Assembly (NCBI GenBank): GCA_964629085.1
Contig: CAZVPR010000002.1
Coordinates: forward strand, 20,428-84,427
Source: an uncultured Anaerolineales bacterium
GTDB lineage: Bacteria > Chloroflexota > Anaerolineae > Anaerolineales > UBA11858
Length of the DNA: 64,000 nt
Direction of reading: 5' to 3'
The position numbers were made by a program, and so were the translations under genes. A model generated the notes under the pieces. That model did not search any database, was not told the DNA's origin, and was given only the letters and a program-made list of their open reading frames with translations. Positions 11,972 to 41,171 of the stretch are shown one piece after another (the first letter of the stretch is position 1; every line of letters begins with the position of its first letter).

Positions 11972-12005
11972 TCTAAACAATTTCTGAACATCTTTTGGAT
12001 AAAGT
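11972..12005 (+). promoter_or_regulatory. Activator-box promoter 1: tandem CTAAACA-ATTT-CTGAACA plus TAAAGT hexamer
   Basis: TCTAAACAATTTCTGAACA (11972-11990) is identical to 33292-33310 and has 1 mismatch to 36768-36786. The 7-bp direct repeats start 11 bp apart (11973, 11984). A 9-nt spacer precedes TAAAGT (12000-12005). No -35-like hexamer is present. Confidence 0.6.
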
Positions 12006-12079
12006 TAGAACCAAGATAAATAGGTATCAGGCAACAACCGAATACCTAATAACGAATACTCAACGCCAAGGAGCGTTTA

Positions 12080-14786: not shown

Positions 14787-14899
14787 TGATTCACCGCTAA
14801 GACGCAAAGAGCGCCAAGATGATTGTTTTTTCTACATTTTGTTTTCTTTAGAATTAACTTCGCGATCTTCGCAACTTCGCGTTAAACAAGGAGTAAATC

Positions 14900-19002: not shown

Positions 19003-19044
19003 TTCGCCAGTTGTTTTACCAAATCAATTTCAAAGGCGCATTTC

Positions 19045-20121
19045 ATGCTGGAGTTTGAACATTCCCTATTTAAGTTATTGCTTCTGGTAGCGGTTTTGAA
19101 CGCCCGACCACCGGGACGCAAGTGGCTGCCGGCTATCATCGCCGGCGGTTTGTTGTTGGCCTTTCTTCCGCCCATAGTGACCGTGACCGTCCCCTGGGAT
19201 TTGGTACTCGGTCTGACCATTCCGCTATTGCTTTGGCAGAACGCCCGTCAGATCATCACTGCCCAATGGGTCGGCAGATGGAAAGATATCCTGATCTGGT
19301 TGGTAGCTGCGGCCTTGTTTGCGGTGGTATTTTGGAGCTTCAAAGGTCTGGAACCCTCAGTGGTGATCCTGTTTAGCCTGGTAGCTGCCAGCATGCTTTG
19401 GAGCGTCGGCAGGACGAAGAACACAACCAGCGTGGTCAGTTTGATCGGTCCCTTCACACTGATCTTTTTGCTCGCCGAAGTGGAGCCTTTGATTCAAAGC
19501 ACATCCCGTTATATTGGCGGGGTATTTAGCGGGTTGGCGATTGGCGCAGTAATCGCTTTGGGGGCGGTTCTGTTGAACAAGAGAAGCACGCCAAACGTTG
19601 GCAATGTTATTGCAATCGCTCAAATCTATCTGGCTTATGGTTTCGCCTTATTTGCCGGTGTTTCTGCCGTCGCTGCCAGTCTGGCCAGCGTGATTGTCTA
19701 TATCACTTTTGGCTTGTATTCAGACCTTTGGCCGGAAAAACGCGTCCAACCGACCCCTATAAATTCATGGGGCGGCTTTATCTATATCCTGGTAATCTTC
19801 ATCTTCCTTGGCTGGCAGGCACATTACCCACCCTCCAGCCTGATTTTTCTGGAAGTATTGGTTGGATTTGTGATCAGTTTATTTATCGCCCGGATTGGAC
19901 AATTCTTGAAATTAGATGCTTTCCCCGATGATCTCCCCCTTTGGCGGGTGGGATTCAAGGTGGCGTTGCTCCTGTTCCCAGCGCTATTAATTTGGCCTCA
20001 TGATACACTACAACAACCGGCATTGCTGGCCTATGCGTTTGGGATTGCGATCCTAAACCTGATCGTTGCCAGACTGACATTAACTTACTTTTTTGAAAGA
20101 ACTGAAGAAATTTACCAATGA
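19045..20121 (+). CDS. Polytopic membrane protein, distantly cation:proton-antiporter-like
   Basis: 358 aa with at least 9 hydrophobic helices. LGLTIPLLLWQNA resembles the LPPLLF block of CPA1 exchangers, but the match is weak. Its stop overlaps the ATPase start (ATGA at 20118-20121). Confidence 0.35.
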   Translation: MLEFEHSLFKLLLLVAVLNARPPGRKWLPAIIAGGLLLAFLPPIVTVTVPWDLVLGLTIPLLLWQNARQIITAQWVGRWKDILIWLVAAALFAVVFWSFKGLEPSVVILFSLVAASMLWSVGRTKNTTSVVSLIGPFTLIFLLAEVEPLIQSTSRYIGGVFSGLAIGAVIALGAVLLNKRSTPNVGNVIAIAQIYLAYGFALFAGVSAVAASLASVIVYITFGLYSDLWPEKRVQPTPINSWGGFIYILVIFIFLGWQAHYPPSSLIFLEVLVGFVISLFIARIGQFLKLDAFPDDLPLWRVGFKVALLLFPALLIWPHDTLQQPALLAYAFGIAILNLIVARLTLTYFFERTEEIYQ

Positions 20122-22868
20122 CAACATCGAACATCCCAAAACCGTGGCACACGTTTTCTGTGGAGACCACGCTCGAAAAACTGGCTGTTGAAACCGATAA
20201 GGGGCTTAGCCAGACCGAAATTACAAACCGTATAGAAAAGTTCGGTTTGAATGAATTGGTAGAACACGGGGCCAAAAACCCCTGGAAAATCCTGTTCGAC
20301 CAGTTCCGAGAGACCATGGTCGTGGTGCTGATCCTCGCCGCTATCGTATCGGCGCTGGTCAGCGACTGGAAAGACGCCATTGCCATCCTTGCCATTGTGA
20401 TCCTCAATGCCGTCCTGGGCTTCGTTCAGGAATTCCGCGCCGAGCAGGCTATGCAGGCGCTAAAGAAAATGGCCGCTCCATTGGTGCGGGTGCGCCGCGA
20501 TGGCAAAGTACTTGAAATCGAATCGGGGCAACTGGTGCCCGGCGACGTGATCTTGCTGGAGGCCGGCAACGCCGTTCCCGCTGACGCCCGGCTGATCGAA
20601 TCGGCCAGCCTGCGTGTTACCGAAGCCTCCCTGACCGGTGAATCCCATCCCATCGACAAAACGGTTGAAACCCTCGAGGGGGATGATTTGCCCTTGGGCG
20701 ACCGCCACAACCTGGTCTATATGGGCACGGTGGTCAATTATGGGCGCGGCGTGGCCGTTGTTGTCGAAACAGGCATGCAGACTCAATTGGGCCGCATCGC
20801 CGAATTGATCCAGTCCGTAGAGGGCGAACAAACTCCTTTACAAAGACGTATGGCGCAACTTGGAAAATCGCTGGCCTTTGCCTCACTGGGAATTGTAGCT
20901 GTGGTCTTCGCTTTGGGCTTAATGCGCGGTGAAGAGATCGGCGAGATGTTTATCACCTCGATTGCCATGGCCGTAGCCGCCATCCCCGAGGGCTTGCCCG
21001 CCGTCGTGACCATTTCCCTGGCTTTAGGCGCCCAACGTATGCTGCGCCGCCAGGCTCTGATCCGTAAACTGCCCGCCGTAGAAACCTTGGGTTCCGTTAC
21101 CACGATCTGCTCTGATAAGACTGGCACGCTGACTGAGAACCGCATGACCGTCACCATCCTGGATGTGATGGGTGAGACCGAACAAATCGATGCCATGCTC
21201 GAAAAGCACATTGCTGTGCTGGATGCTGAATTCCGCCCCAGCGAACGACCTCCCGTGCGCAGCCTGGGCCTGCTGCTCAAAGCGGCCGCCCTGGTCAATG
21301 ATGCTATTTTGCAGGAATCCCCCGAAGAAGATGATGCTTTCCGAGCGATCGGTGATCCTACCGAAGGTGCCTTGTTGATCGCGGCCGCCAAGACCGGCCT
21401 GTGGAAATCCGAACTGGATCAACGCTGGCCGCGCGTGGGCGAAGCTCCATTTACATCAGAACGCAAACGGATGACCACCGTTCACCAGGTCAATATCCCC
21501 ATCGATGCCCCCAGCGATGCACCCTGGCGAGACGCTCCCTATGTAGCGTTTTGCAAGGGCGCGGTCGATGAGATGCTTTCAATCACGGCCCAGGTTTGGG
21601 CTGGTGATCAGGCGGTACCCTTGGGCGATGAACTCAGAGAACGCATCCTGTCATCAAATAACGAGATGGCCGAAGACGGCCAGCGCGTGCTGGGGGTGGC
21701 TTTTCGCCCCCTGAACGAACTGCCTGAAAAAATCGATGAAGAATCGCTGGAAAAAGAGATGACCTTCATCGGCCTTACCGCCATGATCGACCCGCCGCGT
21801 CCTGAGGTTGAAGCTGCTGTGGATACCTGTCAGACAGCCGGCATCCGCCCGGTGATGATCACCGGCGACCACCCCCTGACGGCGCTGCGCATTGCCAAAG
21901 ACCTGGGTATCGCTGACGAAGACGCCCAGGCAGACAGCCAAATTCTTACCGGACAACAGCTTTCCCAAATGTCGGATGACGATCTTGAGGCTGTGGTTGA
22001 GGATGTCTCGGTTTATGCGCGCGTATCCCCAGAACACAAACTCAAAATCGTCCAGGCTCTGCAAACTCGCGGCCATATTGTGGCCATGACCGGAGACGGC
22101 GTCAATGATGCGCCCGCCCTGCGCCGCTCGGATATCGGCGTGGCTATGGGCATCACCGGTACAGACGTCTCTAAAGAAGCCTCTGATATGGTGTTGCTAG
22201 ATGACAACTTCGCCACCATTGTGCGAGCAGTCTCCGAAGGTCGTACGATTTACGACAACATTCGTAAATTCATCAAATACACCATGACCAGCAATGTGGG
22301 CGAGATTCTGGTCATGCTGCTGGCGCCTTTCTTTGGCATGCCGCTGCCGCTTACCGCGCTGCAAATCTTGTGGATCAACCTGGTCACCGATGGACTGCCT
22401 GGGTTGGCGCTGGGTCTGGAACCCTCCGAGCGGGATACCATGCGTCGTCCGCCTCACCCCCCCGGAGAAAGCATTTTCGCCCGCGGCCTGGGCGTGGCCG
22501 TCTTGTGGGTCGGGCCGTTGATGGGCGTCGTTGCCCTGGGTGTTGGCCTGTGGGGCTACCTGACCGGTAACCCTTATTGGCAAACAATGACCTTTACTAC
22601 CCTTACCCTGGCGCAGATGGGCAACGCGCTGGCGATTCGCTCCGATCACGACTCACTTTTCCAGATCGGATTGCTTTCCAACAAACCCATGCTTGGAGCC
22701 GTATTGCTGACCCTTGGCATGCAAATGGTGGTTACCTATTGGGGGCCGGCCCAAAATCTCTTCGGTACTCAGGCCTTGCCACCATTCGAGTTGGTCATCA
22801 GCCTGGCGGCCAGTACGCTGGTTTTCTGGGCCATCGAATTGGAAAAGCTCATCAAGCGGGGAAGATAA
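20118..22868 (+). CDS. P-type ATPase, type IIA (Ca2+-transporting, SERCA/PMCA-like)
   Basis: 916 aa. Motifs [15 protein letters not shown], phosphorylation site [18 protein letters not shown] and [11 protein letters not shown]. Confidence 0.9.
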
Positions 22869-22906
22869 ATTTTTTGCAAATTATTATTTCAATATCAATA
22901 CTTCCT

Positions 22907-22951
22907 TACTTCCTACTCCATATTTCCGATTTTCTAAAGGAGTAGGAAGTA
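22907..22951 (+). terminator. Hairpin downstream of the P-type ATPase gene
   Basis: TACTTCCTACTCC (22907-22919) pairs perfectly with GGAGTAGGAAGTA (22939-22951) around a 19-nt loop. There is no clear U-tract. Confidence 0.45.
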
Positions 22952-22978
22952 GGGAGTAAGGTTTAAGGTTTCTTTCCC

Positions 22979-24268
22979 ATGCTCCCAGATTTACTTCTTA
23001 TCACTTTTCTAATCCTGGCCAACGGCTTCTTCGCCGCTGCCGAGATGGCCGTGGTTTCAGCCCGGCAGTCGCGCTTGCAAACCCTGGCCGAAGAAGGCAA
23101 TGCCCGCGCCTCAAAAGCCCTGGGGTTGCGCGAAAATCCAGCCGAATTTTTGGCCACTGTGCAGGTCGGCATCACGCTAGTGGGTACCCTGGCCTCGGCA
23201 GTTGGCGGTGTGGAAGCTTCGCGCTGGCTGGCCCCACAGATCGCTCGTTTGCCTATGTTGGCACCTTATGCCGAACAGATTGCCCTGGGTTTGGTGGTAG
23301 TTACAATTGCCTTTGGCTCGCTGCTCTTTGGCGAATTGGTACCCAAACGCCTGGCCATCCGCAACCCGGAGAGATTGGCCATCACGGTGACGCGCACCTT
23401 CGAGGTCATGGCGCGCATTGTGAGAATTCCCATTCGCATCCTGATGGTTTCTGCCGATGCCGTGCTGCGCCTGTTCGGGCCCGAACATCCCCAAGATCAG
23501 GCCACCCGCCCCGAAGAGATCGAAGTGTTAGTGCGGCGCAGCGCCGCCGAAGGGATGATCTTGCCCTTGCAGGAGCGTCTGATCGAGCGCGTCTTTGATT
23601 ATGCTGACCGCAGCGTGCGCGATGAAATGACCCCACGAATGGAGATTATCGCCATTGAAACAGGCACCCCCCTGAACGAAGCCTTGGACCTGGGCAAGGA
23701 ACATGGCTATTCTCGATTCCCGGTATATCGCCAAAACCTGGATCACGTTCTCGGCTATGTGCACATCAAAGACCTGATCTGGTCGCCCCCCGACACGCCG
23801 CTAGAGAGCATCCTGCGTCCATTGGAATACATCCCCGAAGGTGCCAGCCTGCCGCAGGCTTTCAACCAGTTGACGCGCAGCGGTTACCAGATGGGCATGG
23901 TGCTGGACGAATACGGAGGCACGGAAGGCTTGATCACGTTGGAAAACCTATTGGAAACGATTGTCGGAGAAATCGAAGACGAACACAGTCCTATTGCTAC
24001 GGTACCCGAGGCGCGCGGTACTGGTGTTTGGGAAATTGCCGGGCATACTGCTATTGTTGAGGTGGCGGAACTTCTGGGTGTGGAATTTGAGGCGCAAGGG
24101 AAATACAACACCCTGGCGGGATTCATCATGGCGCAGTTAGGACAAATCCCCCAGGAGGGGGATTCGGTTCTTTGGAATGATTTTTGCTTCACCGTTGATG
24201 AGATGGAGCGTTTCCGGGTGGTGAGTGTGTGCGTGCGCTACATGCCCTCGGAATCGCAATTTGAGTAG
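22979..24268 (+). CDS. CNNM/HlyC/CorC-family transporter (DUF21 + CBS pair + CorC_HlyC)
   Basis: 429 aa. N-terminal 4-TM DUF21 (FFAAAEMAVVS), a CBS pair (VRDEMTPRMEI..., YSRFPVY) and C-terminal CorC (FCFTVDEMERFRV). Confidence 0.85.
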   Translation: MLPDLLLITFLILANGFFAAAEMAVVSARQSRLQTLAEEGNARASKALGLRENPAEFLATVQVGITLVGTLASAVGGVEASRWLAPQIARLPMLAPYAEQIALGLVVVTIAFGSLLFGELVPKRLAIRNPERLAITVTRTFEVMARIVRIPIRILMVSADAVLRLFGPEHPQDQATRPEEIEVLVRRSAAEGMILPLQERLIERVFDYADRSVRDEMTPRMEIIAIETGTPLNEALDLGKEHGYSRFPVYRQNLDHVLGYVHIKDLIWSPPDTPLESILRPLEYIPEGASLPQAFNQLTRSGYQMGMVLDEYGGTEGLITLENLLETIVGEIEDEHSPIATVPEARGTGVWEIAGHTAIVEVAELLGVEFEAQGKYNTLAGFIMAQLGQIPQEGDSVLWNDFCFTVDEMERFRVVSVCVRYMPSESQFE

Positions 24269-25726: not shown

Positions 25727-25902
25727 ATTGACGGGCTCCTGTTTTTTGAGAGTTACTTTGTCAAATCTGCAAAAGCCCACTAAGTATACTCGATGCTAAC
25801 AAAACCTAAAAACCATCTAAATATCTTTTGAACTTCTCTTTGTTAAGATCATCAAAATTCAAGAATTTAGAATCTATTTCACAAGAAATCATAATCAAAT
25901 TT

Positions 25903-25981
25903 GTTATTGCGAGGAGGCATCGCCAACGAAGCAATCTACAAACAAATATTCAGATTGCCTCGCGGGCGCGCCCGCAATAAC
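25903..25981. repeat. 79-nt imperfect hairpin repeat (GTTATTGCGAGG ... GCAATCT / AGATTGC ... CGCAATAAC)
   Basis: Outer arms GTTATTGCG (25903-25911) / CGCAATAAC (25973-25981), inner arms GCAATCT / AGATTGC. A related GTCATTGCGA...GCGGCAATCTC element occurs at ~30932-31015. Confidence 0.65.
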
Positions 25982-26009
25982 ATCATGCAAAATTGAAGAG
26001 GATATTAGA

Positions 26010-27650
26010 ATGCAAAAAACAAAAATGCTCGTTTTGGCTCTCGTACTACTCGTCAGCGGATTGGTGGCTCTCAACAACGCCCAATCCGCGGCCGCCTCAT
26101 CGCTGGCGGATATATTGGGTCAATTTACCAGCGAGGCTTGCCTCGACAATACAGCCGATGAGGGCCAGTGCAAAGATTGCTGCGACAGCCTTGATGCGGA
26201 CGGCAAAGCTCGCAAAGCCTGCCGCGATTCTTGCGCGGTACAGGATTTCGCTCAAAATATTGAATTGATCTCATTCGAAATCACATCTGTACTCGGACCT
26301 GGTGGCGACTACTCTGTTTGCTCGGCCAGCGGCGATGAACGTACCTGCAAGGATTGTTGTGACGATTCCAATTCAATAGCCGGCGGCGACCGGCGCTTTT
26401 GCCGCGATGCCTGTTCCGACGCAACCGGCGCACAGAACAACCAAAACCCCGCTCCACCCCCCGAGCAAGGACAACCACCCCAAGGTCAATCTCAAGGCCC
26501 CCGAGAAATGACTATCCAGCAAGCCATTTCCGATGAAGCCCAAATGAAGACCATCGCCTTTGACGCTTTGTCTTTCCTGACCGGAAGCTTGGGCGCCGAT
26601 TCCTTCTTCCCACCCGGAAAGGTGGCAGATTTCTGGGGTTTCCAATATTTGCGCGACAACGACCTCAGTGAGATGGGCCACAACACCGATTTCCTCACAA
26701 GTGCCGCGTTCAATATGCTGAACGTGCTGACACCTGCTCAGCGCGCCGAATTGATCGTGCTGGCCAAAAGCCAGGTGGATGAGATCAACCAGTATGGCTA
26801 CATGCGCTTCACCCTGATGGATGCTTTTCGGAGCTTGTTAGAAGGCGATCTGCCTGCTGGCACATCTGGGCTAAGCGAGGCGGCCGTCAAAGCTTACTCG
26901 TCAGATCTTTATCGCCTGGATGGTGAGATCAGCTTCGAGCGGGCGCAGGTGATGGGCAGCCTGTTGCACGCCCTGGATTCTGATCAACGCGCTTATCTGG
27001 ATGTTATGGTCGGTCAGGGTATGCTCGATTGGCCCGATGTAAATGAACCCGACGACATGCGCGGTTTGGCGCGCGATGTCAAGGTGGCCGTGATGACCTA
27101 CGCTGGCGATATGTTCAGTTGGTATGTCGGCTCTCTGGAAGCGGACGTCTACTTCTGCCCCGAGCGTCAAGGCACTTACTTCGGCGCTTTCTATATGAAA
27201 GACGCTCCAGCAGTCGGCAACCCCGGCTACAACATCGGCACCAACATCACCGCTGATTCGGGCCAGGCTTTGTTGGATACACTTAACCCAGAGCAGGCCA
27301 ATCTGATCACCAGCCTGGTGGATGTACAGCGCAGCGATCTGACTAGCATTGTGGACGTGCGCCAGCAAGTCGCAGTTGAACTGCGTAAGTTCATGGCTGG
27401 TGAATCCGCCGATTTGGCTTATGTACTCGGTCTGATGGAAAGATACGGAGAATTGGATGGCGCCATCGTTTATAACTACGCCAAGAATTTTGCCCGAGTA
27501 AAGCAGATGTTGAGCTCAGAACAACTGGCGCAATTGATGACTTTGCGAGAAGAATTACTTGGTGAGTTGATTTTCCCGTCTGGGGCTTATCTCTACTCTC
27601 AGCCCATCCCAATGCCAGAGATTGGGAATACGGACTTCTTGTTCCAATAA
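26010..27650 (+). CDS. Exported hypothetical protein with a duplicated N-terminal Cys motif
   Basis: 546 aa with a signal peptide. Two copies of C-K-D-C-C-D-x(n)-C-R-D-(S/A)-C (CKDCCDSLDADGKARKACRDSC; CKDCCDDSNSIAGGDRRFCRDAC). A Q/P/G linker is followed by a ~380-aa domain with no motif I recognise. Confidence 0.6.
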   Translation: MQKTKMLVLALVLLVSGLVALNNAQSAAASSLADILGQFTSEACLDNTADEGQCKDCCDSLDADGKARKACRDSCAVQDFAQNIELISFEITSVLGPGGDYSVCSASGDERTCKDCCDDSNSIAGGDRRFCRDACSDATGAQNNQNPAPPPEQGQPPQGQSQGPREMTIQQAISDEAQMKTIAFDALSFLTGSLGADSFFPPGKVADFWGFQYLRDNDLSEMGHNTDFLTSAAFNMLNVLTPAQRAELIVLAKSQVDEINQYGYMRFTLMDAFRSLLEGDLPAGTSGLSEAAVKAYSSDLYRLDGEISFERAQVMGSLLHALDSDQRAYLDVMVGQGMLDWPDVNEPDDMRGLARDVKVAVMTYAGDMFSWYVGSLEADVYFCPERQGTYFGAFYMKDAPAVGNPGYNIGTNITADSGQALLDTLNPEQANLITSLVDVQRSDLTSIVDVRQQVAVELRKFMAGESADLAYVLGLMERYGELDGAIVYNYAKNFARVKQMLSSEQLAQLMTLREELLGELIFPSGAYLYSQPIPMPEIGNTDFLFQ

Positions 27651-28030: not shown

Positions 28031-29104
28031 TTATAAATTCAGCAATTCCGGTACCGGCTCATGATGCTTGGTCAATTCATGCGCCACATCATCCAGTTCT
28101 GTGTCAACAAACCAGGGGTCGACATGCACTACAATTTCAGTCAACCCTTCTATTTCATGAAATAACTTATGACGGACATCTTCTGCGACCCGATGCCCAT
28201 CAATTGTTGAAAGATTAGCATCCACTGCAATACAAACTTCGGCATGCAATTGATGGCCAACCCAGCGCATTCGCAACCGCTTCAGTTCTTTGACCTCCGC
28301 ATGATGCCCAATAACATGTTCAGCCCGATCTAAATTTTCCGGCTCAATGGCATCCATCAGACGATACCAGATTGATTTAGTGGCATCCCAGGTGATAAAC
28401 AGAATGGTAATTCCAATCAGAAACCCTATAATGGGGTCCACGATGGGAAAGCCCAACCAGGCCCCACCCGCAGCAATCAACACCGCCAGGGAGGTCAATC
28501 CATCCGTACGGGCGTGCAATCCATCAGCCATCATCGCCGCTGACCCGATGCGCCGACCCACACGAATCTGAAGGATCGCTACCAACTCATTGCCCAGGAA
28601 ACCGATCAAGGAGGCGGCTGCTACCCAACCCAGGTTAATTATCGGTTGGGGGTCGATCAGTCGTTGGAAAGATTCCCAAAACACCACCCCGGCACTGACC
28701 GCAATCGACAACACGATGAAAATCCCGGCGATATCTTCAGCTCTTCCAAAACCGTAATTGTAGCGCCGCGTAGGCAGGCGGCGCGCCAGGTAAAAGGCAA
28801 TCAGCAAGGGAATCGAATTCAACCCATCGCCAATATTGTGCGTAGTATCTGCCAGCAGAGAAACGCTGCCACTGAAATATACAATCACAATTTGCATAAT
28901 TGACGTTGCCAATAAAATCGCCAAAGCTATCCAAATCGTTCGAATCCCCTCTTGATTATTCTTGAAGGCTGTTTCAGCGGCAACGTGCCTGCGATCGTGA
29001 CTGTGGACGTGAAAGAGTGAACTTATCCTTTGGAAAAGGCCGTCCGAATGCTGGTGCTCAGCATCTCCTTGATGAGAATGATCGTGATTGTGATGGGATC
29101 CCAT
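28031..29104 (-). CDS. Cation diffusion facilitator (CDF) divalent-metal exporter with a His-rich N-terminus
   Basis: 357 aa. N-terminus MGSHHNHDHSHQGDAEHQH, six TM helices with HNIGDGLNS and DPIIG blocks, and a C-terminal cytoplasmic dimerisation domain. Confidence 0.85.
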   Translation of the reverse strand: MGSHHNHDHSHQGDAEHQHSDGLFQRISSLFHVHSHDRRHVAAETAFKNNQEGIRTIWIALAILLATSIMQIVIVYFSGSVSLLADTTHNIGDGLNSIPLLIAFYLARRLPTRRYNYGFGRAEDIAGIFIVLSIAVSAGVVFWESFQRLIDPQPIINLGWVAAASLIGFLGNELVAILQIRVGRRIGSAAMMADGLHARTDGLTSLAVLIAAGGAWLGFPIVDPIIGFLIGITILFITWDATKSIWYRLMDAIEPENLDRAEHVIGHHAEVKELKRLRMRWVGHQLHAEVCIAVDANLSTIDGHRVAEDVRHKLFHEIEGLTEIVVHVDPWFVDTELDDVAHELTKHHEPVPELLNL

Positions 29105-33240: not shown

Positions 33241-33291
33241 AGCAAGCCCTTCATAAATTACGCATATCGCATACATCAATTCCAAAAGCCT

Positions 33292-33325
33292 TCTAAACAA
33301 TTTCTGAACATGGTTTTGCTACTAT
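33292..33325 (+). promoter_or_regulatory. Activator-box promoter 2: CTAAACA-ATTT-CTGAACA plus TACTAT hexamer
   Basis: TCTAAACAATTTCTGAACA (33292-33310), 9-nt spacer TGGTTTTGC, TACTAT (33320-33325). ATG 33357 has SD AAGGAG. Confidence 0.6.
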
Positions 33326-33356
33326 TTTGGCAAGTTTATTCGTAAAGGAGCAAACC

Positions 33357-34973
33357 ATGAATATCAAAAAGAAAACTCTATTCGCAGCAATGGCATTCGT
33401 TTTTGCGATAACAGCAAGCAATCTCGTTTTTCCTCTGGTCACTGTCGTTGCCAAAACCGTCGAAGCCATACCAGAAACAGAGCCTTCAGGCGATGTTGAA
33501 ACTCAGGACGCGGCGATATTCAGTTACCCCATCGTCGACACCGGACAAGAATACTGCTACAGCGATAACGGCAGTATCCCTTGCCCGGAGGATGGACAAT
33601 CGTATTACGGCCAGGATGGTCAGGTGATCGGCAATCAAGCCCGCTACCAGGATAACGGCGACGGCACTGTGACCGACCTAGTGACCGGTTTGATGTGGCA
33701 GCAGGACCCCGGCGAAAAAATGACCTATGCCGAAGCCGCTTCCGGCGCGGACAGCTTCAGTTTGGCGGGCTACAATGATTGGAGATTACCCACCATCAAA
33801 GAGCTGTATTCGTTGATTGATTTCAGCGGCACCGATGTCAGCCGCTGTGTTGAAGAGGGCACCTGCACGGGCAACCCCTTCATCGATACTGATAATTTCG
33901 ATTTCGAATATGGGGACACCGCCGCCGGAGATCGCATCATCGACTCGCAGTGGGCTACCAGCACGATTTACGAAGGCAGTGTTATGAACGGCTCCCAGGC
34001 CATGTTCGGGGTCAACTTCGCCGATGGTCGCATCAAGGGCTACGGCACGGGAGTAGGCCGCGGCGGTCAAGCAAAAGGTTTCTTTGTGATCTACGTACGT
34101 GGGAACACGAGCTACGGAGAGAACAACTTTGCCGACAACGGCAATGGTTCGGTTACCGATAACGCTACTGGCCTGACCTGGATGCAATCCGACAGCGCCC
34201 AAGGCTTAGACTGGGAAGAAGCTCTCAATTATTGCTCGAGCCTCGACTATGCCGGGATCAGCGATTGGCGGCTGCCCAATGCTAAAGAGCTGCACAGCAT
34301 CGTCGATTACAGCCGCTCTCCAGACACAACCAACTCAGCAGCCATCGATCCAATCTTCAATGTAACTTCGATTACCAACGAAGCTGGTCAGACCGATTAC
34401 CCCGCTTTCTGGAGCAGCACGACCCACGCAAACTCCAATGGAATGACAGGCGCCGGTGTATACATCAACTTTGGTCGCTCGATGGGCAACATGAACAACA
34501 ACTGGATGGATGTGCATGGTGCTGGCGCACAACGCGCTGAAATGAAAAGCGGTGATCCCTCCATCTATTCAACCGGCCACGGGCCGCAAGGCGACGCCGT
34601 TCGGGTCTACAACTACGCTCGCTGTGTGACCGGCGGCACGACGGATGAAGTGATCACCGGCGGTGAGATCGACCCCAACGCTGTTGCCAATTCAGAATTC
34701 GCAAGTGGGTCGCCGCAGGCGCAAGCCGGTCAACAGACTGGGCAGCCCTCGGGAAATAATCTGGCCGGCGCGGCTGGCAGCAACCAGCTTTCCCAGTCCG
34801 GGCCGCCTCAGGAAGCCATTGATGCCTGCACCGGTTTGAGCGCAGGCGCCACTTGCTCCGTAGGCCCTGGCAGTGGAACCTGTGAGAATATCCAGAATCA
34901 ACTAGTTTGTGTGCCGGAAGGCGGCCCTCCGGGAGGAGGGCAGGGTCCACCCCAAGGAGGTGGGCAGCCATAA
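33357..34973 (+). CDS. Exported DUF1566 (Lcl C-terminal domain) protein ending in the 4-Cys module
   Basis: ATG 33357 is preferred (SD AAGGAG). Signal peptide. Two DUF1566 blocks (TGLMWQQD...DWRLPTIKELYSL; TGLTWMQSD...DWRLPNAKELHSI). A Q/G/N linker is followed by PPQEAIDACTGLSAGATCSVGPGSGTCENIQNQLVCVPE. Confidence 0.75.
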   Translation: MNIKKKTLFAAMAFVFAITASNLVFPLVTVVAKTVEAIPETEPSGDVETQDAAIFSYPIVDTGQEYCYSDNGSIPCPEDGQSYYGQDGQVIGNQARYQDNGDGTVTDLVTGLMWQQDPGEKMTYAEAASGADSFSLAGYNDWRLPTIKELYSLIDFSGTDVSRCVEEGTCTGNPFIDTDNFDFEYGDTAAGDRIIDSQWATSTIYEGSVMNGSQAMFGVNFADGRIKGYGTGVGRGGQAKGFFVIYVRGNTSYGENNFADNGNGSVTDNATGLTWMQSDSAQGLDWEEALNYCSSLDYAGISDWRLPNAKELHSIVDYSRSPDTTNSAAIDPIFNVTSITNEAGQTDYPAFWSSTTHANSNGMTGAGVYINFGRSMGNMNNNWMDVHGAGAQRAEMKSGDPSIYSTGHGPQGDAVRVYNYARCVTGGTTDEVITGGEIDPNAVANSEFASGSPQAQAGQQTGQPSGNNLAGAAGSNQLSQSGPPQEAIDACTGLSAGATCSVGPGSGTCENIQNQLVCVPEGGPPGGGQGPPQGGGQP

Positions 34974-34974
34974 A

Positions 34975-35038
34975 CCCTCACCCCTTCTCGCTTGCGCTTG
35001 ACTCCCTTCTCCCAATGGGAGAGGGGCTGGGGTGAGGG
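34975..35038. repeat. Dispersed hairpin repeat family B, copy 2 (intercistronic)
   Basis: CCCTCACCCC (34975-34984) and GGGGTGAGGG (35029-35038) are exact reverse complements. The interior CCAATGGGAGAGGGGC is shared with 7321-7394. Confidence 0.85.
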
Positions 35039-35055
35039 CAAAAAAGGAGCTTGTC

Positions 35056-36636
35056 ATGAAGAAAAAACCCTTTACCATTCTAACCATTCTGCTCAGTTTA
35101 TCGATCCTGGCCTGTGTATTTGCAGAAACCGTTGCCGGACAAGTACTCACAGGCGCCGATGGTCATCGCCAGGACGCTGATATCTCTGAGAGTACTGATA
35201 ATAATTCATCCATCCCCCTTCTCCTGGATTTTCCCACAGATACTTCACAAGCCAGCAATCAAATCACAGACGGGTATTACCTCTTTTCACCAATTCGCTC
35301 TACCGAGACCTACCTGATGGACTCCAATGGAGTGGCTGTTTTCACCTGGCAGAGCGATTACACTCCCGGTCACGCGGTCTATTTCTTAGATAACGGCAAC
35401 CTGCTGCGATCCGGAAGCCTGGGCCGCGGTACCTTCAGTGCCGGCGGCGTGGGCGGGGTCATTCAGGAGGTCGCCCCCGATAACAGCGTGGTTTGGGAAT
35501 TCCAATACGCCGATGGCCTGGTCCAACAGCACCACGATATCGAGCAATTGCCCAACGGCAACATTCTGTTGATCGCCTGGGAGTTGAAGACCCGAGAAGA
35601 AGCTATCGCCGCCGGACGTGACCCCAGCTTGCTAGATGAGGGCGAACTCTGGCCGGATCATGTTGTTGAGGTGGATCCTGCCACCCATGAGATCGTCTGG
35701 GAATGGCATGTCTGGGACCACCTCATTCAGGATTACGACTCCAGCAAGCCTAACTATGGCATGGTTGCGGACCACCCTGAACGGATCGATCTCAACTATA
35801 CCGTCAACCGTAAAGCTGGTGCCGATTGGAACCACACCAACTCGATCGATTACAATGCCGACCTCGACCAAATCATCCTCAGTGTGCTGGGGTTCGGCGA
35901 GATTTGGATCATCGACCATAATACGACTACGGAAGAAGCCGCTGGACCGGCCGGCGACCTGCTTTATCGCTGGGGTAATCCCGAGGCATATGACACTGGA
36001 ACCGCGCAGGATCAGCAACTTTTTGGTCAGCATGATGCCCAATGGATTCCCACTGAGTATCCTGGCGGCGGCAACATCTTGATCTTCAACAACGGCGACC
36101 GCCGCACGCGGGCTTACTCCTCCGTGGACGAGATTATGCCCCCCCTTAACAGCGATGGCAGTTATGCGCTCACAGCGGGTACTGCTGATAAGCCAGAGAC
36201 CACAACCTGGTCCTACGCTTCCCCCAACGATTTCTACGCCGATCATATCTCCGGTGCACAGCGCCTGCCCAATGGCAACACGCTGATCTGCAGCGGGACC
36301 GACGGGCGCTTCTTCGAAGTGACTCCCGCTGGGGAAATCGCCTGGGAATACAATTATGGCGCCGAGGTCTTCCGGGTCTCGCAGATCGCTGCCGATCATC
36401 CTGGTTTGGCAAGCCTAGCTCTGCAACCTGGTGATGTGCTGATCGGTGAGAGTGGTGTTCGAAACCAAAGCTCTGGGGGCCAACTCCAGGACAATGGTTC
36501 CCCTCCGCAACCGGCGATAAACGCCTGCAATGGCTTGGTCGAAGGAGACGCCTGCACAGTTCAACTACCCAAACGGACGGTAAACGGTTCTTGCCAGACT
36601 ATTCAGAACCAATTGGCCTGCGCACCAGACGGATAA
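35056..36636 (+). CDS. Exported arylsulfotransferase-like beta-propeller protein ending in the 4-Cys module
   Basis: ATG 35056 (SD GGAG). Signal peptide with a lipobox-like ILAC. The blocks DNGNLLRSG, VQQHHDIEQLPNGNILLIAWE, NHTNSIDYN and LPNGNTLIC resemble the ASST beta-propeller family. The C-terminus is PPQPAINACNGLVEGDACTVQLPKRTVNGSCQTIQNQLACAPDG. Confidence 0.55.
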   Translation: MKKKPFTILTILLSLSILACVFAETVAGQVLTGADGHRQDADISESTDNNSSIPLLLDFPTDTSQASNQITDGYYLFSPIRSTETYLMDSNGVAVFTWQSDYTPGHAVYFLDNGNLLRSGSLGRGTFSAGGVGGVIQEVAPDNSVVWEFQYADGLVQQHHDIEQLPNGNILLIAWELKTREEAIAAGRDPSLLDEGELWPDHVVEVDPATHEIVWEWHVWDHLIQDYDSSKPNYGMVADHPERIDLNYTVNRKAGADWNHTNSIDYNADLDQIILSVLGFGEIWIIDHNTTTEEAAGPAGDLLYRWGNPEAYDTGTAQDQQLFGQHDAQWIPTEYPGGGNILIFNNGDRRTRAYSSVDEIMPPLNSDGSYALTAGTADKPETTTWSYASPNDFYADHISGAQRLPNGNTLICSGTDGRFFEVTPAGEIAWEYNYGAEVFRVSQIAADHPGLASLALQPGDVLIGESGVRNQSSGGQLQDNGSPPQPAINACNGLVEGDACTVQLPKRTVNGSCQTIQNQLACAPDG

Positions 36637-36757
36637 GAAACCATGACGCGGTACCTCGGAAATTTGGTATTGGGTATTGGATAATCGGTATTCGTACCTC
36701 ATTACCCAATACCTAAAACCTGAACATTACCAAACGCTTACAAGCCCCCAACCCGGC

Positions 36758-36801
36758 CTGAACAGCTTCTAAGCAATTTCTGAACAACCTTTTGCTATGC
36801 T
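36758..36801 (+). promoter_or_regulatory. Activator-box promoter 3: three in-phase repeats CTGAACA / CTAAGCA / CTGAACA plus TATGCT hexamer
   Basis: Repeats start at 36758, 36769 and 36780 (11-bp phasing). The 9-nt spacer ACCTTTTGC precedes TATGCT (36796-36801). ATG 36842 has SD AGGAGG. Confidence 0.6.
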
Positions 36802-36841
36802 TATAGCAAGATACCAAAGCACGTGTATGCAGGAGGATGTC

Positions 36842-38299
36842 ATGAACAAGAATTTATTTTTCATCATGGTTTTAGTTAGCGCTTTGTTTATTGCACAAAT
36901 GGCGTGCTCAATACCCGGCTCATCCGAGGCACAGGTTGAAGGCTCCCAGCCTGTCAATGCGCTGGAAGAGAACGAAGAGGAAGGAATAGCAGATGTACCA
37001 GCGGCAACACAAGCACCTTCTCCACAACCGGGCCAGGGCAACAATCAGCCGGGCGGCGGCCAACAAAATCAGGGCAACCAGGGCAATAATCAACCGGGTG
37101 GTGGTCAACAACCGCAGGGAAACCAACCCTGCCAGGATGGCTTCATCGCCAATGGCAACATTGCCAACGGGCAAGTATTCGAATCAGACGAGAGTTTTCA
37201 AGTGATTTGGACATTGGAAAATACCGGCAATTGCACCTGGAACAGCGGTTATGTTCTGAAGATGCTTGGCGGCGATATTATTACTTCAGAAAGCGAACTA
37301 GCAGTGAGTGCAACGGTAAACCCTGGGAACACGACCACCCTTTCAGTAGACATGCAAGCCCCCTCAACGCCAGGCAATTATGTATCCGCCTGGAAAATGA
37401 CCGATGGACAGGGCCATGCCTTTGGGTTGGATTCTCCCCCTAATGCTCCCTTGCGGGTAGCTATCAAAGTCATCCCGGCAGGCAACCAGGGCAATCAATC
37501 CAACCCCACCCCCGAAGCGAATCCCGATGCGGCAGTAACCGGGAGCGGGCAAACCTTGCTCGACGGGCAGTGCTTCGACCTCAACAGCGGCCAGGAAGTC
37601 GCTTGCAACAACAGCGCCGCCGATGTGATGTATCAGTTCAACCCGGTAACCAGCGGAAAATTCCATGGCCAGAACAACACCAACCTGGCCAACAACCGTG
37701 ATGAAGAGCCCGATAAAGCAACTTGCGAAGCAGAAACGTATCCGCCCATGGCGCATTCAGCACTGGAAGACAAGTACTTTTGCTTCCAAATCAACAATAT
37801 CGTCAACACTACCTACGGCTGGATGCGAGTCGAACGCTTCGATCAAGACGGCGTCACCTTCGATTTCATGACCTTCAAGACTGACCCGCCTGTCGCTCAG
37901 CCGATCAACCCCAATGCCCTCTTCGTCGAGAGCCAGGGTGATCAGGTTACCATGTTAAAAGGCGAATGCTTCGATGTAGGGAATGGCCAACTCAACGAGC
38001 AGTGCACAGGCGTTTTCGCCGGCTTCCTGTACGAAGAAACTACCAAACGAAATATCACTGTCATGCAGATCAACCCCAGCGAAGTTACATATGCAGCTGC
38101 TTTGAGTTTTGAACCAAACAAATCGGATTGTGAAACTGCCAGTTATAACCAATCCCCTATCTGGCCCATCAAAGAAACGGAATACTATTGCTACCAATTC
38201 ACATCGGGAATCAATACTCATTACGGCTGGCTGCGCCCGACTTATTTTGACACCAACGGCATGACCTTTGATTATCTGACCTGGCAGGCGATGCCATGA
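36842..38299 (+). CDS. Exported protein: NBR1-FW-like Ig domain plus two copies of an unnamed 4-Cys ~120-aa domain
   Basis: ATG 36842 is preferred. Signal peptide and a Q/G/N-rich linker. WTLENTGNCTWNSGYVLKMLGGD...PGNYVSAWKMTDGQGHAFG matches the NBR1-like bacterial Ig fold. The C-terminal halves repeat: GQCFDLNSG...TYGWMRVERFDQDGVTFDFMTF and GECFDVGNG...HYGWLRPTYFDTNGMTFDYLTW. Confidence 0.55.
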   Translation: MNKNLFFIMVLVSALFIAQMACSIPGSSEAQVEGSQPVNALEENEEEGIADVPAATQAPSPQPGQGNNQPGGGQQNQGNQGNNQPGGGQQPQGNQPCQDGFIANGNIANGQVFESDESFQVIWTLENTGNCTWNSGYVLKMLGGDIITSESELAVSATVNPGNTTTLSVDMQAPSTPGNYVSAWKMTDGQGHAFGLDSPPNAPLRVAIKVIPAGNQGNQSNPTPEANPDAAVTGSGQTLLDGQCFDLNSGQEVACNNSAADVMYQFNPVTSGKFHGQNNTNLANNRDEEPDKATCEAETYPPMAHSALEDKYFCFQINNIVNTTYGWMRVERFDQDGVTFDFMTFKTDPPVAQPINPNALFVESQGDQVTMLKGECFDVGNGQLNEQCTGVFAGFLYEETTKRNITVMQINPSEVTYAAALSFEPNKSDCETASYNQSPIWPIKETEYYCYQFTSGINTHYGWLRPTYFDTNGMTFDYLTWQAMP

Positions 38300-38409
38300 A
38301 TGGTGGGAAGTTGATTGTTGATAATGGGCAGAATTGTGAGACACTGCCCACATGCTAACTTGCTTACTTGCCCACACGCCCACTTACAAACTTGCACTAT
38401 AATTAAACT

Positions 38410-39105
38410 ATGAACAAAACCATCCTCGTCGTAGACGACAAAGCCAATGTGCGCACCCTCTTGCGGGAATATCTGACCGAAGAGGGTTTTCACGTTGTGA
38501 CGGCCGAGAACGGCCAGGAGGCGCTATACGTCGCCCGCCACGAAAAACCCGATCTGGTCATCCTGGACATTATGATGCCCGAAATGGGCGGCTATGATTT
38601 CCTGCGTGCCTACCGCAAAGAGCAAGATACGCCGGTGATCATGTTAACCGCCAAGATCGAAGAATCCGACAAAGTACTCGGTTTAGAACTGGGCGCCGAC
38701 GACTACGTCACCAAGCCATTCGGCATGCGCGAGATTGTCGCCCGCATCCGGGCCGTGCTGAGGCGCACCGGCCAGACCGCGCCCCCCTCCGAGGTGCTGC
38801 GCGGTGCCGATATCACCCTCGACAAAGGAGGCCATACCGTCAAAGTCGGCGACGATTTCATCGACCTGACTCCCTCTGAATTTGATTTACTAGCCGTACT
38901 GCTGGAATCCCCAGGGCGAGTCTTCTCTCGACTGGATTTACTGGAAAAATTGCAGGGCACCGCTTTTGAGGGCGTGGAACGAACCATCGATGTCCACATC
39001 CGCAACTTGCGCACCAAGATCGAACCCGACCCCAGCCAGCCGCGCTATATTGAGACCGTTTTCGGTGTGGGATACCGATTCGGAGCGGGGAGCAGTGAGC
39101 GGTAA
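38410..39105 (+). CDS. OmpR/PhoB-family response regulator
   Basis: 231 aa. Receiver domain (ILVVDD, phospho-Asp in LVILDIMMP, LTAK) and winged-helix output (LTPSEFDLLAVLLESPGRVFSR..., IETVFGVGYRF). Confidence 0.95.
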   Translation: MNKTILVVDDKANVRTLLREYLTEEGFHVVTAENGQEALYVARHEKPDLVILDIMMPEMGGYDFLRAYRKEQDTPVIMLTAKIEESDKVLGLELGADDYVTKPFGMREIVARIRAVLRRTGQTAPPSEVLRGADITLDKGGHTVKVGDDFIDLTPSEFDLLAVLLESPGRVFSRLDLLEKLQGTAFEGVERTIDVHIRNLRTKIEPDPSQPRYIETVFGVGYRFGAGSSER

Positions 39106-39164
39106 GCCGAGAGCATTTGACCCTCATCCTCACCACTCTCCATTGTCCACTTCCCACTAAAATT

Positions 39165-40649
39165 ATGCGCTCATTAACTCCCAAACTACTGCTCGCCTTT
39201 GTCTGTGTCAGTCTGACGGTGGCAGTATTAGGCGCGGCGATCATTCGCTATACATCCCAAAAAGAATTCGAGGATTTAGCACTCAATAACGCCCGCAACA
39301 ATTTCATCAATCGGGCCAGTACCTATTACCGTACCACCGGTTCCTGGGAGGGCTACGCACCGATATTCTTTGGCCAGACCGCGGCTCAGGCGCAGAATCA
39401 ACCCAACCAACAGAGGCCCCCCCTCCAAGGGCAACCGCAGAATCAACCCCCAAATCAGCGTCCACAAGGTCAACCTGAACCTGATCCCAATGATCAACAA
39501 AGGCAACAAGGTCTCACATTTATATTGGTTGACGTGGATGGACGCATTGTGATTCCCGTGCGACCGTACCGAGTGGGGGAATTCGTGCCGGATGAGTTGC
39601 TTTCGGATAGTATCGACATTGAAATTCGCGGCGAGGTGGTTGGTAGCGTGATTACCCTCGGTGAGTTACCTCCCCTGGATCAACGCGAACTGCGTTTCCT
39701 GGAGCGCACCAATAATTCACTGATTTTCGCAACCCTGGGTGCCACCGCCATCGCCATGATCATCAGTTTGGTGCTGACGCGCGGCCTGACACGTCCGCTG
39801 CGAGAATTGACCGGCGCTATTCGATCGCTCCCTCAGGGCGGCATGGGCCAGCAGGTAAGCGTGCGAACCAGGGATGAGATCGGCCAACTGGCCCAAGCTT
39901 TCAACCTGATGAGCGCTGATCTGGCTCGGCTCAGTGAACAGCGCCGCCAAATGACTGCCGATATAGCCCACGACTTACGCAGCCCGCTGACTGTCATTGG
40001 AGGATACATCGAATCGATGCGCGATGGTGTACTACAGCCCACGCCCCAACGATTGAACGCCATTCACGATGAAGTGCAGCATCTGGAGCGCCTGGTAGAA
40101 GACCTGCGCACGCTTTCCCTGGCTGACGCCGGAGAACTCTCACTCAACCTGGCATCCATCTCGCCGGCCGGATTGCTAGAACAGGTCCAGGCTGCTTATC
40201 AGCACGCCGCCGAACGCAAGAACCTGACATTGGCGACGAGTGCCAATGGCAGACTGCCTACCTTCAATGCCGATCCCGACCGCATCATGCAGGTATTAGG
40301 CAACCTGGTCAGCAATGCCATCCGACATACGTCCGAAGGAGGAAAGATCAGTGTGCAGTGTGCAGTGTTCAGTGAGCAGGTGGCCTTTAGCAGTCAGCAG
40401 CCCTTCTCCCGTCATCCGTCCTCAGTCATCTTCACCATCAGTGACACGGGCTCTGGAATTCCCGCCGATGATTTGCCTCGCATCTTCGACCGTTTTTACC
40501 GTGTGGACGACTCGCGCCACGGCGGGGAGGGCGAATCCGGGCTGGGGCTGGCGATCGCCAAATCAATCGTCGAGATGCATGGGGGTACAATTGGGGTCGA
40601 GAGTGAGTTAGGGCGAGGGACGACCTTCACCATTTCATTACCCCTCTAA
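39165..40649 (+). CDS. Sensor histidine kinase (2 TM, Q/N/P-rich periplasmic domain, HAMP, HisKA, HATPase_c)
   Basis: ATG 39165 is preferred. H-box IAHDLRSPLT, N-box LGNLVSNAIRHT, and G-boxes DTGSGI and GLGLAIAK. Extra residues lie between the N-box and the G1-box. Confidence 0.9.
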   Translation: MRSLTPKLLLAFVCVSLTVAVLGAAIIRYTSQKEFEDLALNNARNNFINRASTYYRTTGSWEGYAPIFFGQTAAQAQNQPNQQRPPLQGQPQNQPPNQRPQGQPEPDPNDQQRQQGLTFILVDVDGRIVIPVRPYRVGEFVPDELLSDSIDIEIRGEVVGSVITLGELPPLDQRELRFLERTNNSLIFATLGATAIAMIISLVLTRGLTRPLRELTGAIRSLPQGGMGQQVSVRTRDEIGQLAQAFNLMSADLARLSEQRRQMTADIAHDLRSPLTVIGGYIESMRDGVLQPTPQRLNAIHDEVQHLERLVEDLRTLSLADAGELSLNLASISPAGLLEQVQAAYQHAAERKNLTLATSANGRLPTFNADPDRIMQVLGNLVSNAIRHTSEGGKISVQCAVFSEQVAFSSQQPFSRHPSSVIFTISDTGSGIPADDLPRIFDRFYRVDDSRHGGEGESGLGLAIAKSIVEMHGGTIGVESELGRGTTFTISLPL

Positions 40650-40679: not shown

Positions 40680-41171
40680 ATGGCTGCCAATAAATCCAGA
40701 ATGCCCGAAGCCACATATTTTAAAACGTTTGTCTATTTGTTGTGTTCGCTGGCAGTGATAATATCTGCCTGTAATTGCAGTCAGAGCGAAAATAATCCCA
40801 TAAGCACCCCAACCCCAACTGATGAGATGGTGCCAACCTCTAAACGGGAAGCTTATTACATCAATATGCCATCACAACCTGGGGTGGTGGTCTATAACCG
40901 GGTAGAGGCCTTCATTCAGGCCCATGATTTCATGGATGCATTCCAAGCCGCGCTGAGCGATGGCCAATTTTCAGAGGATGAGCTGGAGCAAATAGCCCAA
41001 TTAGCCGCCAACGCCGAAGCCAGCCTGTACAATACCGGCGACTGGCCGCTTTTTGAACACGCCCGGCAAATAGACAAACTTAGTAAACATGCCTTTCGGG
41101 GGGAATTGGCCCAAGCGGAGATTGGGATTGGCGAACTGAAAAGATCATTACCCCGCCGGCCGCGGCCTTGA
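40680..41171 (+). CDS. Small lipoprotein-like hypothetical protein downstream of the kinase
   Basis: 163 aa. Lipobox-like IISAC, a helical acidic body and a basic tail RRPRP. It starts 30 bp after the kinase stop on the same strand. Confidence 0.5.
   Translation: MAANKSRMPEATYFKTFVYLLCSLAVIISACNCSQSENNPISTPTPTDEMVPTSKREAYYINMPSQPGVVVYNRVEAFIQAHDFMDAFQAALSDGQFSEDELEQIAQLAANAEASLYNTGDWPLFEHARQIDKLSKHAFRGELAQAEIGIGELKRSLPRRPRP

Follow-up and report, generated by a model that had tools for sequence, protein, structure and literature searches.

A candidate OmpR/PhoB-type two-component regulon with a conserved tandem-repeat box in uncultured Anaerolineae

The window analyzed here is a 64-kb stretch of DNA (64,000 nucleotides of contig CAZVPR010000002.1) from an uncultured Anaerolineales bacterium, and the closest named relatives of the locus are Anaerolineales metagenome-assembled genomes (MAGs). 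Metagenome contigs from JGI and ENA encode proteins identical to those of the window. The 19-mer TCTAARCAATTTCTGAACA (the box) occurs in the window at 11972-11990, 33292-33310 and 36768-36786, always on the + strand, compared with 0.02 chance matches in dinucleotide-preserving shuffles, and allowing up to three mismatches adds no other site in the window. Start codons preceded by a Shine-Dalgarno (SD) sequence follow 89, 46 and 55 nt past the respective boxes (ATG at 12080, 33357 and 36842) and open, in this order, a GT39 glycosyltransferase operon, an operon for an Lcl_C protein and an arylsulfotransferase-like (ASST) protein, and the gene of a secreted NBR1-like protein. The last of these precedes the genes of an OmpR/PhoB-family response regulator (RR) and a sensor histidine kinase (HK). 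Here, we propose that these elements form a regulon in which the RR would act through the box.

The first operon (12080-15631, +) encodes a GT39/PMT_2+YkcB_C protein (12080-14350), a GtrA-like protein (14322-14786, start uncertain) and a GT2 protein (14900-15631), so that a PMT_2 protein stands together with a partner GT2 and a GtrA-like protein (Pfam PF13231, 7.4e-33; PF24878, 6.3e-16; GtrA_DPMS_TM, 8.9e-26; Glycos_transf_2, 6.2e-28). The second (33357-36636, +) consists of an Lcl_C/DUF1566 protein (33357-34973; Pfam Lcl_C) and an ASST propeller (35056-36636; Pfam Arylsulfotrans), for which gene calls on identical metagenome contigs give 35056 as the start. The secreted NBR1-like Ig-domain protein (36842-38299, +) matches Pfam N_BRCA1_IG. 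The RR (38410-39105, +) has the receiver and Trans_reg_C domains of the OmpR/PhoB family (PF00072, 3.4e-33; PF00486, 5.6e-27), matches the structures of MtrA, RegX3 and KdpE, its closest, over the full length, and is the sole OmpR-type regulator gene in the window. The adjacent HisKA-type HK (39165-40649, +) has two transmembrane segments, an extracytoplasmic loop of ~155 aa, HAMP, HisKA and HATPase_c (Pfam), and its start is most likely 39165 rather than 39117, again from gene calls on identical metagenome contigs. The GT39, DUF1566, ASST, NBR1-like, RR and HK families had been named in a first-pass annotation made from the sequence alone, and the Pfam matches agree with it.

Box 1 (11972-11990, +) reads TCTAAACA-ATT-TCTGAACA, that is, two 8-bp direct repeats 11 bp apart, and matches the 19-mer exactly; its -10 hexamer, TAAAGT (12000-12005, +), lies 9 nt past the box, with a predicted transcription start near 12012. 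Box 2 (33292-33310, +; TCTAAACAATTTCTGAACA) is followed by TACTAT (33320-33325, +), with TGC before it as in an extended -10 and a predicted start near 33332. Box 3 (36757-36786, +) carries a third in-phase repeat (CCTGAACA-GCT-TCTAAGCA-ATT-TCTGAACA) ahead of TATGCT (36796-36801, +), likewise preceded by TGC and with a predicted start near 36808. In each case the spacer between the 19-mer and the TAnnnT hexamer is 9 nt long and contains TTTTG, and a sigma-70 consensus scan finds no -35/-10 pair at any of the three promoters. The pattern CTRARCA-N4-CTRARCA occurs four times on the + strand of the window (11973, 33293, 36758 and 36769) and never on the - strand. These features had been described in the first-pass annotation (three copies, all +, 46-89 nt upstream of SD start codons; CTRARCA repeats 11 bp apart with a third in phase at 36758; a TTTTG-containing 9-nt gap to TAnnnT; no -35), and each holds when coordinates are reread and scans and shuffles are applied. 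Its count of three box promoters was right as far as it went, but a fourth, degenerate site had been missed. A relaxed scan of the window, with at most four substitutions across the two 8-mers and TAnnnT required at +9, returns four sites only, all on the + strand and all intergenic, and shuffles give 0.07. Box 4 (25816-25834, +, or to 25849 with its -10) reads TCTAAATATCTTTTGAACT, with spacer TCTCTTTGT and TAAGAT at 25844-25849, and is supported because orthologues of the gene behind it, sec546, follow consensus boxes in five other loci.

Two other readings of these promoter regions were discarded. An inverted repeat around the -10 (TTGC..GCAA, or TTGG..CCAA in promoter 1) looks compensatory and is not kept in other species. 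A Bacteroidetes-type or sigma-54-type reading of TTTG and GG/GC misfits the spacings, and the organism belongs to the Chloroflexi. A scan of the whole window against Rfam at gathering thresholds gave no match.

Beyond the window, we searched 185,579 species-representative genomes with the bare 19-mer, TAnnnT not being required, and obtained 15 matches, nine of them in eight Chloroflexi/Anaerolineae MAGs and six in other phyla. About nine chance matches are expected arithmetically from the size of the collection; the six in other phyla fit this number and were used as an internal control. All nine Chloroflexi matches have TAnnnT exactly 9 nt after the box and a downstream SD-ATG, which opens a signal-peptide-like or membrane protein. 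The matches in Paenibacillus, Brevibacillus, Rummeliibacillus and Endobugula (L011, L013, L014, L017, L020 and L025) were rejected as noise, with TAnnnT at +9 in none of the six and no gene start.

A metagenome scan with the pattern TCTRARCANNTTCTGAACA-N9-TANNNT added 112 loci with 114 sites, which together with the MAG loci amount to 127 sites and 115 unique 58-mers. The box lies outside any stop-free frame of at least 150 codons at 84% of the 127 sites, compared with 25% of random positions in the same loci, and an SD-preceded open reading frame starts at most 130 nt downstream of the -10 at 66%, compared with 15% for random positions and 12% when the opposite direction is read. Three 19-nt copies in 64 kb could suggest a repeat family, and the block would then be a dispersed repeat or mobile-element remnant with no regulatory role. 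Yet similarity among the copies stops within ~35 nt and their flanks are unrelated, the relation to gene starts is strict in strand and position, and the box is kept upstream of orthologous genes in lineages with 50-80% protein identity. Because the box is mostly intergenic, oriented towards gene starts and present as one strict site only on a 754-kb contig, the chance that it is such a repeat appears close to nil; the sites are best read as candidate regulon promoters, as had been suggested at first pass.

Conservation is seen in the Black Sea MAG locus L023, which is syntenic with the window (Lcl-ASST-NBR1-RR-HK, 62-82% protein identity, including the Lcl-ASST gene pair) and in which the Lcl and NBR1-like orthologues each have a box in front. 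When the intergenic regions are aligned pairwise, only box, spacer, -10 and SD prove to be conserved. The Lcl orthologue is preceded by a conserved form of box 2, TCTAAACAAGTTCTGAACA, with an identical TGCTACTAT at the -10 region, and the three-repeat box 3 is kept before the NBR1-like orthologue. More widely, at least 20 other Chloroflexi lineages have the box, with its 9-nt geometry, in front of orthologues of the PMT_2/GT39, Lcl_C, NBR1-like and sec546 genes.

A position-frequency matrix of the 115 unique sites reveals weaker in-phase repeats, TCnnAAca at -10 to -3 and tcTaAACA at -21 to -14, so that up to four tandem in-phase 11-bp units are visible. The spacer consensus is TCTyTTTGC, with TG at the extended -10 position in about half of the sites (T in 64%, G in 50%), and TAnnnT is always present; the start is inferred from leaderless RR genes. 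As in Pho-box-like operators, there are at least two direct repeats with 10-11-bp phasing (here TCTRAACA-N3-TCTGAACA, 11 bp), and the array overlaps the -35 region, with 9 nt to TAnnnT in all four window sites and in the nine Chloroflexi matches. This architecture also bears on the idea that the block is the promoter of an alternative, extracytoplasmic function (ECF)-type sigma factor, with GAAC as its -35 and no RR involved. In favor of this idea, GAAC or AAC is typical of ECF -35 elements, and the block combines high conservation with a promoter-proximal position. However, TGAACA is separated from TAnnnT by 9 nt instead of 16-17, the -10 is of the housekeeping TAnnnT/TGn type, and no sigma factor needs direct repeats in tandem, here up to four units phased by 11 bp. 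Neither the window nor any of the 127 box loci yielded an RpoE- or SigW-like gene, against an RR gene in 35 of the loci, and we regard an ECF promoter as very improbable.

The link between box and regulator comes from the same loci. A tblastn search with the window RR finds orthologues (63-82% identity) in 35 of the 127 box loci, whose mean length is ~4 kb. For a single-copy gene, presence in 28% of such loci is therefore an enrichment by orders of magnitude. The RR orthogroup is the only regulator family that recurs in box loci, a kinase adjoins the RR orthologue in 22 of them, and the recognition helix RTxDVHxRNLRxK is invariant across 25 orthologues. The box stands immediately upstream of the RR gene in 15-17 loci, and in another set of loci the gene of a small secreted protein stands between the box and RR-HK, as it does in the window. 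These findings favor the adjacent RR and HK as candidate regulators, the role that the first-pass annotation had given them. The RR promoters also place the transcription start. Leaderless genes that have TANNNT ~12 nt before the start codon have been reported in bacteria, Chloroflexi among them (PMC3160421), and TAnnnT-6 nt-ATG is found in 14 of 33 distinct RR upstream regions, nine of which have the box 9 nt before the hexamer. The first T of the hexamer lies 12 nt from the start codon, which fixes +1 and puts the box at about -40 to -22. Since the start codon coincides with the predicted +1 in the nine leaderless box-RR loci, the -10 assignment is independently supported.

In the window itself, the RR gene has a leaderless promoter of a different kind, a box-less TATAAT (38398-38403, +) 6 nt before the ATG at 38410, which would supply basal RR expression. 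There is no + strand terminator-like site in 38299-38410, and the folding of this spacer is not significantly better than that of shuffles (z = -1.2). Because the leaderless RR promoter lacks a box, autoregulation here would be possible only via read-through from the NBR1-like promoter. Autoregulation, claimed as positive at first pass, would thus be direct in the 15-17 other loci in which the box precedes the RR gene, but at this locus could act only in that indirect form. The gene downstream of the kinase, hyp163 (40680-41171), was dismissed as a member of the system because no other box locus conserves it. In the kinase, the extracytoplasmic loop (39390-39500) has long stretches of low complexity in which Q, P, N and G abound. 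The catalytic half of the HK is 32% identical to a second histidine-kinase paralogue at 61207-61872 (-), for which no OmpR-type partner regulator was detected in the window.

PhoB-type regulators recruit polymerase when their box replaces the -35. They bind head-to-tail on tandem 11-nt direct repeat units (PMC4415409). From the promoter geometry and the gene associations above, the box is, with good probability, the operator of the RR encoded at 38410-39105, and activation would be conventional and PhoB-like. In the proposed mechanism, the membrane kinase (39165-40649) would sense an extracytoplasmic cue and phosphorylate the RR, which would then bind head-to-tail to TCTRAACA and TCTGAACA, the strong pair of 8-bp direct repeats spaced 11 bp from start to start, in an array that could be extended by one or two weaker in-phase upstream repeats. 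Located at about -40 to -22, this array would replace the -35 and end exactly 9 bp from the TAnnnT -10, a position from which the RR could recruit the housekeeping RNA polymerase holoenzyme as PhoB does. Four transcription units in the window would be driven in this way, namely GT39-GtrA-GT2, Lcl_C-ASST, NBR1-like and, more weakly, sec546, with possible read-through from the NBR1-like gene into RR-HK. GT39-GtrA-GT2 would be a surface glycosylation operon using polyprenyl-phosphate sugars. Across Anaerolineae, the same RR-box pair is predicted to control genes for PEBP, DUF2680, YHYH and LTXXQ proteins and HlyD-ABC-MacB efflux genes, and in many species the RR may also control its own leaderless gene.

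Several observations weigh against this assignment. Two thirds of the box loci have no RR gene, though the loci are short, and the RR gene's own promoter lacks a box in both the window and L023, so that an autoregulatory loop is not universal. The same observations (RR nearby in only 35 of 127 loci, and no box at the RR promoter of the window) would suit a real operator bound by another transcription factor encoded elsewhere, be it another OmpR-family protein or a true PhoB/PhoP, with RR and HK as mere targets; xxAACA-type half-sites are, moreover, common to several OmpR subfamilies. Against such a factor speak the enrichment of the RR gene in ~4-kb loci, the standing of its orthogroup as the only recurrent regulator family there, the direct box-to-RR promoters in at least 15 loci, a classic signature of an autoregulated two-component system, and the lack of pst or pho genes among 164 genes downstream of the box. 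We therefore find it unlikely that another factor is the cognate one.

Binding by the RR, as we prefer, leaves the direction of control to be weighed. Here, too, there are reservations: the metagenome pattern fixed TAnnnT at +9, so that the spacing is testable only in the nine genome-collection matches; 10-15 of the metagenome matches look chance-like (for example L027/L078, L034, L038, L061, L065 and L087); and activation is favored over repression only by the lack of a -35 and by the fixed overlap of the box with the -35 region. The main mechanistic rival is accordingly an RR that binds the box as a repressor or dual regulator and occludes the -35 region. The box covers part of the region with which RNA polymerase must make contact, and RpaB and MtrA repress from such positions. 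Repression is nevertheless a poor fit, and we give it little credence: no -35-like hexamer is present at any of the promoters, the -10 hexamers are mostly imperfect (TATCCT, TACTAT, TATGCT, TAAAGT), and the rigid 9-nt spacing in all nine unbiased matches suits a polymerase-recruiting activator better than a roadblock.

To describe the putative regulon across species, we compiled the genes behind the box in other loci (100 distinct first genes and 64 distinct second or third genes). Among first genes, PMT_2 (17) and response regulators (15) lead, followed by PEBP (9), DUF2680 (5), the sec546 family (5, by BLAST), YHYH (4), HlyD (4), SGL (3), Yip1 (3) and LTXXQ (1). Second and third genes include histidine kinases (9), response regulators (6), ABC transporter ATPases (5, one locus also with a MacB domain), GtrA (5), Metallophos (3), ASST (2), PEBP (2), YceI (1) and LTXXQ (1). 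The target families of the window recur in this census: orthologous GT39 genes have the box in 17 other loci, five of which have GtrA after the box-driven GT39; Lcl_C follows the box in 7-9 cases (seven as first gene); NBR1-like/N_BRCA1_IG in 1-2 (one as first gene); and ASST is the second gene after the box in two loci. In the MAGs, the downstream genes include Lcl_C (L018), PMT_2+YkcB_C (L022) and N_BRCA1_IG (L023). The first-pass proposal of a regulon that links GT39, DUF1566, ASST and NBR1-like proteins is thus upheld by families that recur behind the box. The likely role of the regulon would be a response that remodels the envelope or the secretome.

Leaders of some box-driven GT39 genes (L048:1410-1470 and L053) contain short tandem repeats, such as (AGTCTAA)n in L048. 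A conserved hairpin ACGGGAAGA...CCCCGU between -10 and SD is shared by the leaders at L029, L032, L066, L085, L104:3277 and L125, and the box-driven genes with this hairpin encode small secreted proteins or lipoproteins.

The probable fourth target, sec546 (26010-27650, +), encodes a secreted protein of 546 aa from an unnamed family and lies downstream of box 4 behind a structured leader of ~150 nt. Searches of Pfam and of the PDB, including a PDB profile search, gave no significant match for the family, and the window protein shows only a faint similarity to LTXXQ (E = 0.014). Orthologues stand behind consensus boxes in L022, L040, L068, L080 and L133. In an alignment of five sequences (window, L022, L040, L080 and L133), mean column identity is 59% over the whole length; the C-terminal domain of ~380 aa is strongly conserved and the N-terminal Cys-rich region is variable. 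The leader (25860-26009) can form a long hairpin, GUUAUUGCGAGG...CCUCGCGGGCGCGCCCGCAAUAAC (-40 kcal/mol, z = -4.5), which belongs to no Rfam family. Another strong, GC-rich nested hairpin lies in the Lcl/ASST gap at 34974-35040 (-40 kcal/mol, z = -3.1) and is followed by an A-rich stretch, not a U tract; its role may be in mRNA stabilisation or processing and not in termination. Linkers rich in Q, G and N, similar to the stretches in the kinase loop, occur in the Lcl protein and in the NBR1-like protein (N-terminal region, 37030-37130). The region between the box-driven operons also holds several genes of ion homeostasis in a run (18376-24268 and 28031-29104), all of them without a box; they encode a beta-carbonic anhydrase, a P-type cation ATPase, a CNNM/CorC transporter and a cation-diffusion facilitator.

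A further feature shared by the predicted targets is a four-Cys module of ~45 residues, PPQEAIxAC-x7-8-C-x10-14-GxC-x6-8-LxCxP. Within the window it is found only in three regulon proteins, in a loop of GT39 (13058-13192, aa 327-371) and at the C-termini of Lcl (34803-34922) and ASST (36499-36633). The private Cys module of the first-pass annotation is therefore present in these three proteins, but absent from the NBR1-like protein. A hidden Markov model built from the three copies detects 32 in the window and the box loci (for example L018, L022, L023, L026, L031, L040 and L043), located in the extracytoplasmic loop of the GT39 orthologues that the model matches, at Lcl and ASST C-termini and in the N-terminal regions of other secreted proteins, including, in other species, that of sec546. 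The module has no Pfam match even at permissive E-values and no match in the PDB. Since it sits both in the GT39 loop and in co-regulated secreted proteins, one may speculate that the regulon is a dedicated surface-layer or sheath glycoprotein programme across the class Anaerolineae, with the module as a common docking or recognition tag, a doubtful reading as matters stand. If true, the tag would couple the GT39 enzyme to its substrates or anchor the substrates to one envelope polymer, and the two-component system would monitor the state of that surface layer.

Anaerolineae are abundant in sediments, oxygen-minimum zones and digesters and almost uncultured. In our literature searches (the motif, Chloroflexi response-regulator regulons, and Anaerolineae two-component systems with GT39) we found nothing relevant, and a transcription-factor regulon of the class does not seem to be on record in the literature searched. 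The present analysis provides what appears to be a newly delineated OmpR/PhoB-type two-component regulon for these uncultured bacteria, with a nearly invariant operator, a probable regulator and conserved targets (GT39 surface glycosylation, MacAB-like efflux and secreted families with the Cys module). With the box as a guide, co-regulated genes can be annotated in MAGs and metatranscriptomes can be interpreted. The mechanism, a PhoB-like activator at promoters with a -10 and no -35, is textbook, and the value lies in the catalogue and the biology rather than in a new concept.

The most obvious comparison is with the Pho box of PhoB in E. coli and the PHO boxes of PhoP in Bacillus and Streptomyces. 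Both systems have a winged-helix OmpR/PhoB-family regulator, an operator in place of the -35 that ends ~10 bp from the -10, weaker extra upstream units (as in complex Streptomyces operators) and, in many species, an autoregulated regulator. Tandem direct repeats with 11-bp phasing (7-8 conserved and 3-4 less conserved positions) are likewise common to both, as head-to-tail binding (PMC4415409) would be. However, the repeat here is TCTRAACA and not CTGTCAT or GTTCACC, and the kinase, which has a large extracytoplasmic loop, is not linked to Pst. The RR scores below the cut-offs for PhoB/PhoP orthologues (TIGR02154, 225.6 against 296.2 bits; NF007546, 184 against 471; NF053854, 195 against 270), and the 164 box-downstream genes include no pst (pstSCAB), pho (phoA/D/X), ugp or phn genes, with only four generic Metallophos matches. 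Because the RR falls below these cut-offs and the targets are unrelated to phosphate, the predicted operator is Pho-like in geometry only and this is not a Pho regulon; of the label 'Pho-box-like' given at first pass, the geometry remains and the phosphate biology does not.

Among other OmpR-family systems, the closest structures and models are MtrA of the actinobacterial MtrA/MtrB pair (6.6e-55), actinobacterial RegX3 (3.5e-52) and cyanobacterial RpaB (third-best NCBIfam match), which also use direct-repeat operators and come from related Terrabacteria lineages. The HLR1 repeats of RpaB differ in being 10 bp apart with the sequence TTTACA, and the regulons differ as well, comprising cell division for MtrA and photosynthesis for RpaB. 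The RR again scores below the NCBIfam equivalog cut-offs (MtrA, 227/300 bits; RpaB, 218/330; YycF, 214/340; BaeR, 199/380; CpxR, 177/341), as does the kinase (BaeS, 242/500; WalK, 240/725). BaeSR and CpxAR share with the present system that BaeS is the best full-length NCBIfam match of the kinase and that the regulon across species has HlyD-ABC-MacB efflux genes and LTXXQ (CpxP/Spy-like) proteins. Nevertheless, these scores lie far below the equivalog cut-offs, the operator sequence is another one, and the main targets (GT39, Lcl_C, PEBP and sec546) have no counterpart in the Bae or Cpx regulons.

On the side of the targets, actinobacterial O-mannosylation, with Pmt (GT39) and Ppm1 (GT2), resembles the window in having GT39, GT2 and secreted proteins with low-complexity linkers as possible enzyme and substrates. 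The match in nearly all members is to PMT_2/YkcB_C rather than PMT (17 against 2), and actinobacterial O-mannosylation is not known to be under a dedicated two-component system. The closest analogue by logic is PmrA/PmrB (BasRS) with arnBCADTEF, although the target enzyme here is of the PMT_2/YkcB type, the bacterium is without lipid A as a known substrate, the regulon is dominated by secreted proteins, and the BasR and PmrA models are not the best matches. In the arn pathway, a GT2 polyprenyl-phosphate-sugar synthase is combined with a small flippase and a GT-C transferase, and the GT39 protein of the window has a weak match to ArnT (8.6e-9). In PmrAB, as proposed here, an OmpR-family two-component system acts on direct repeats, in that case hexamers, with 11-bp phasing to control a pathway of envelope modification.

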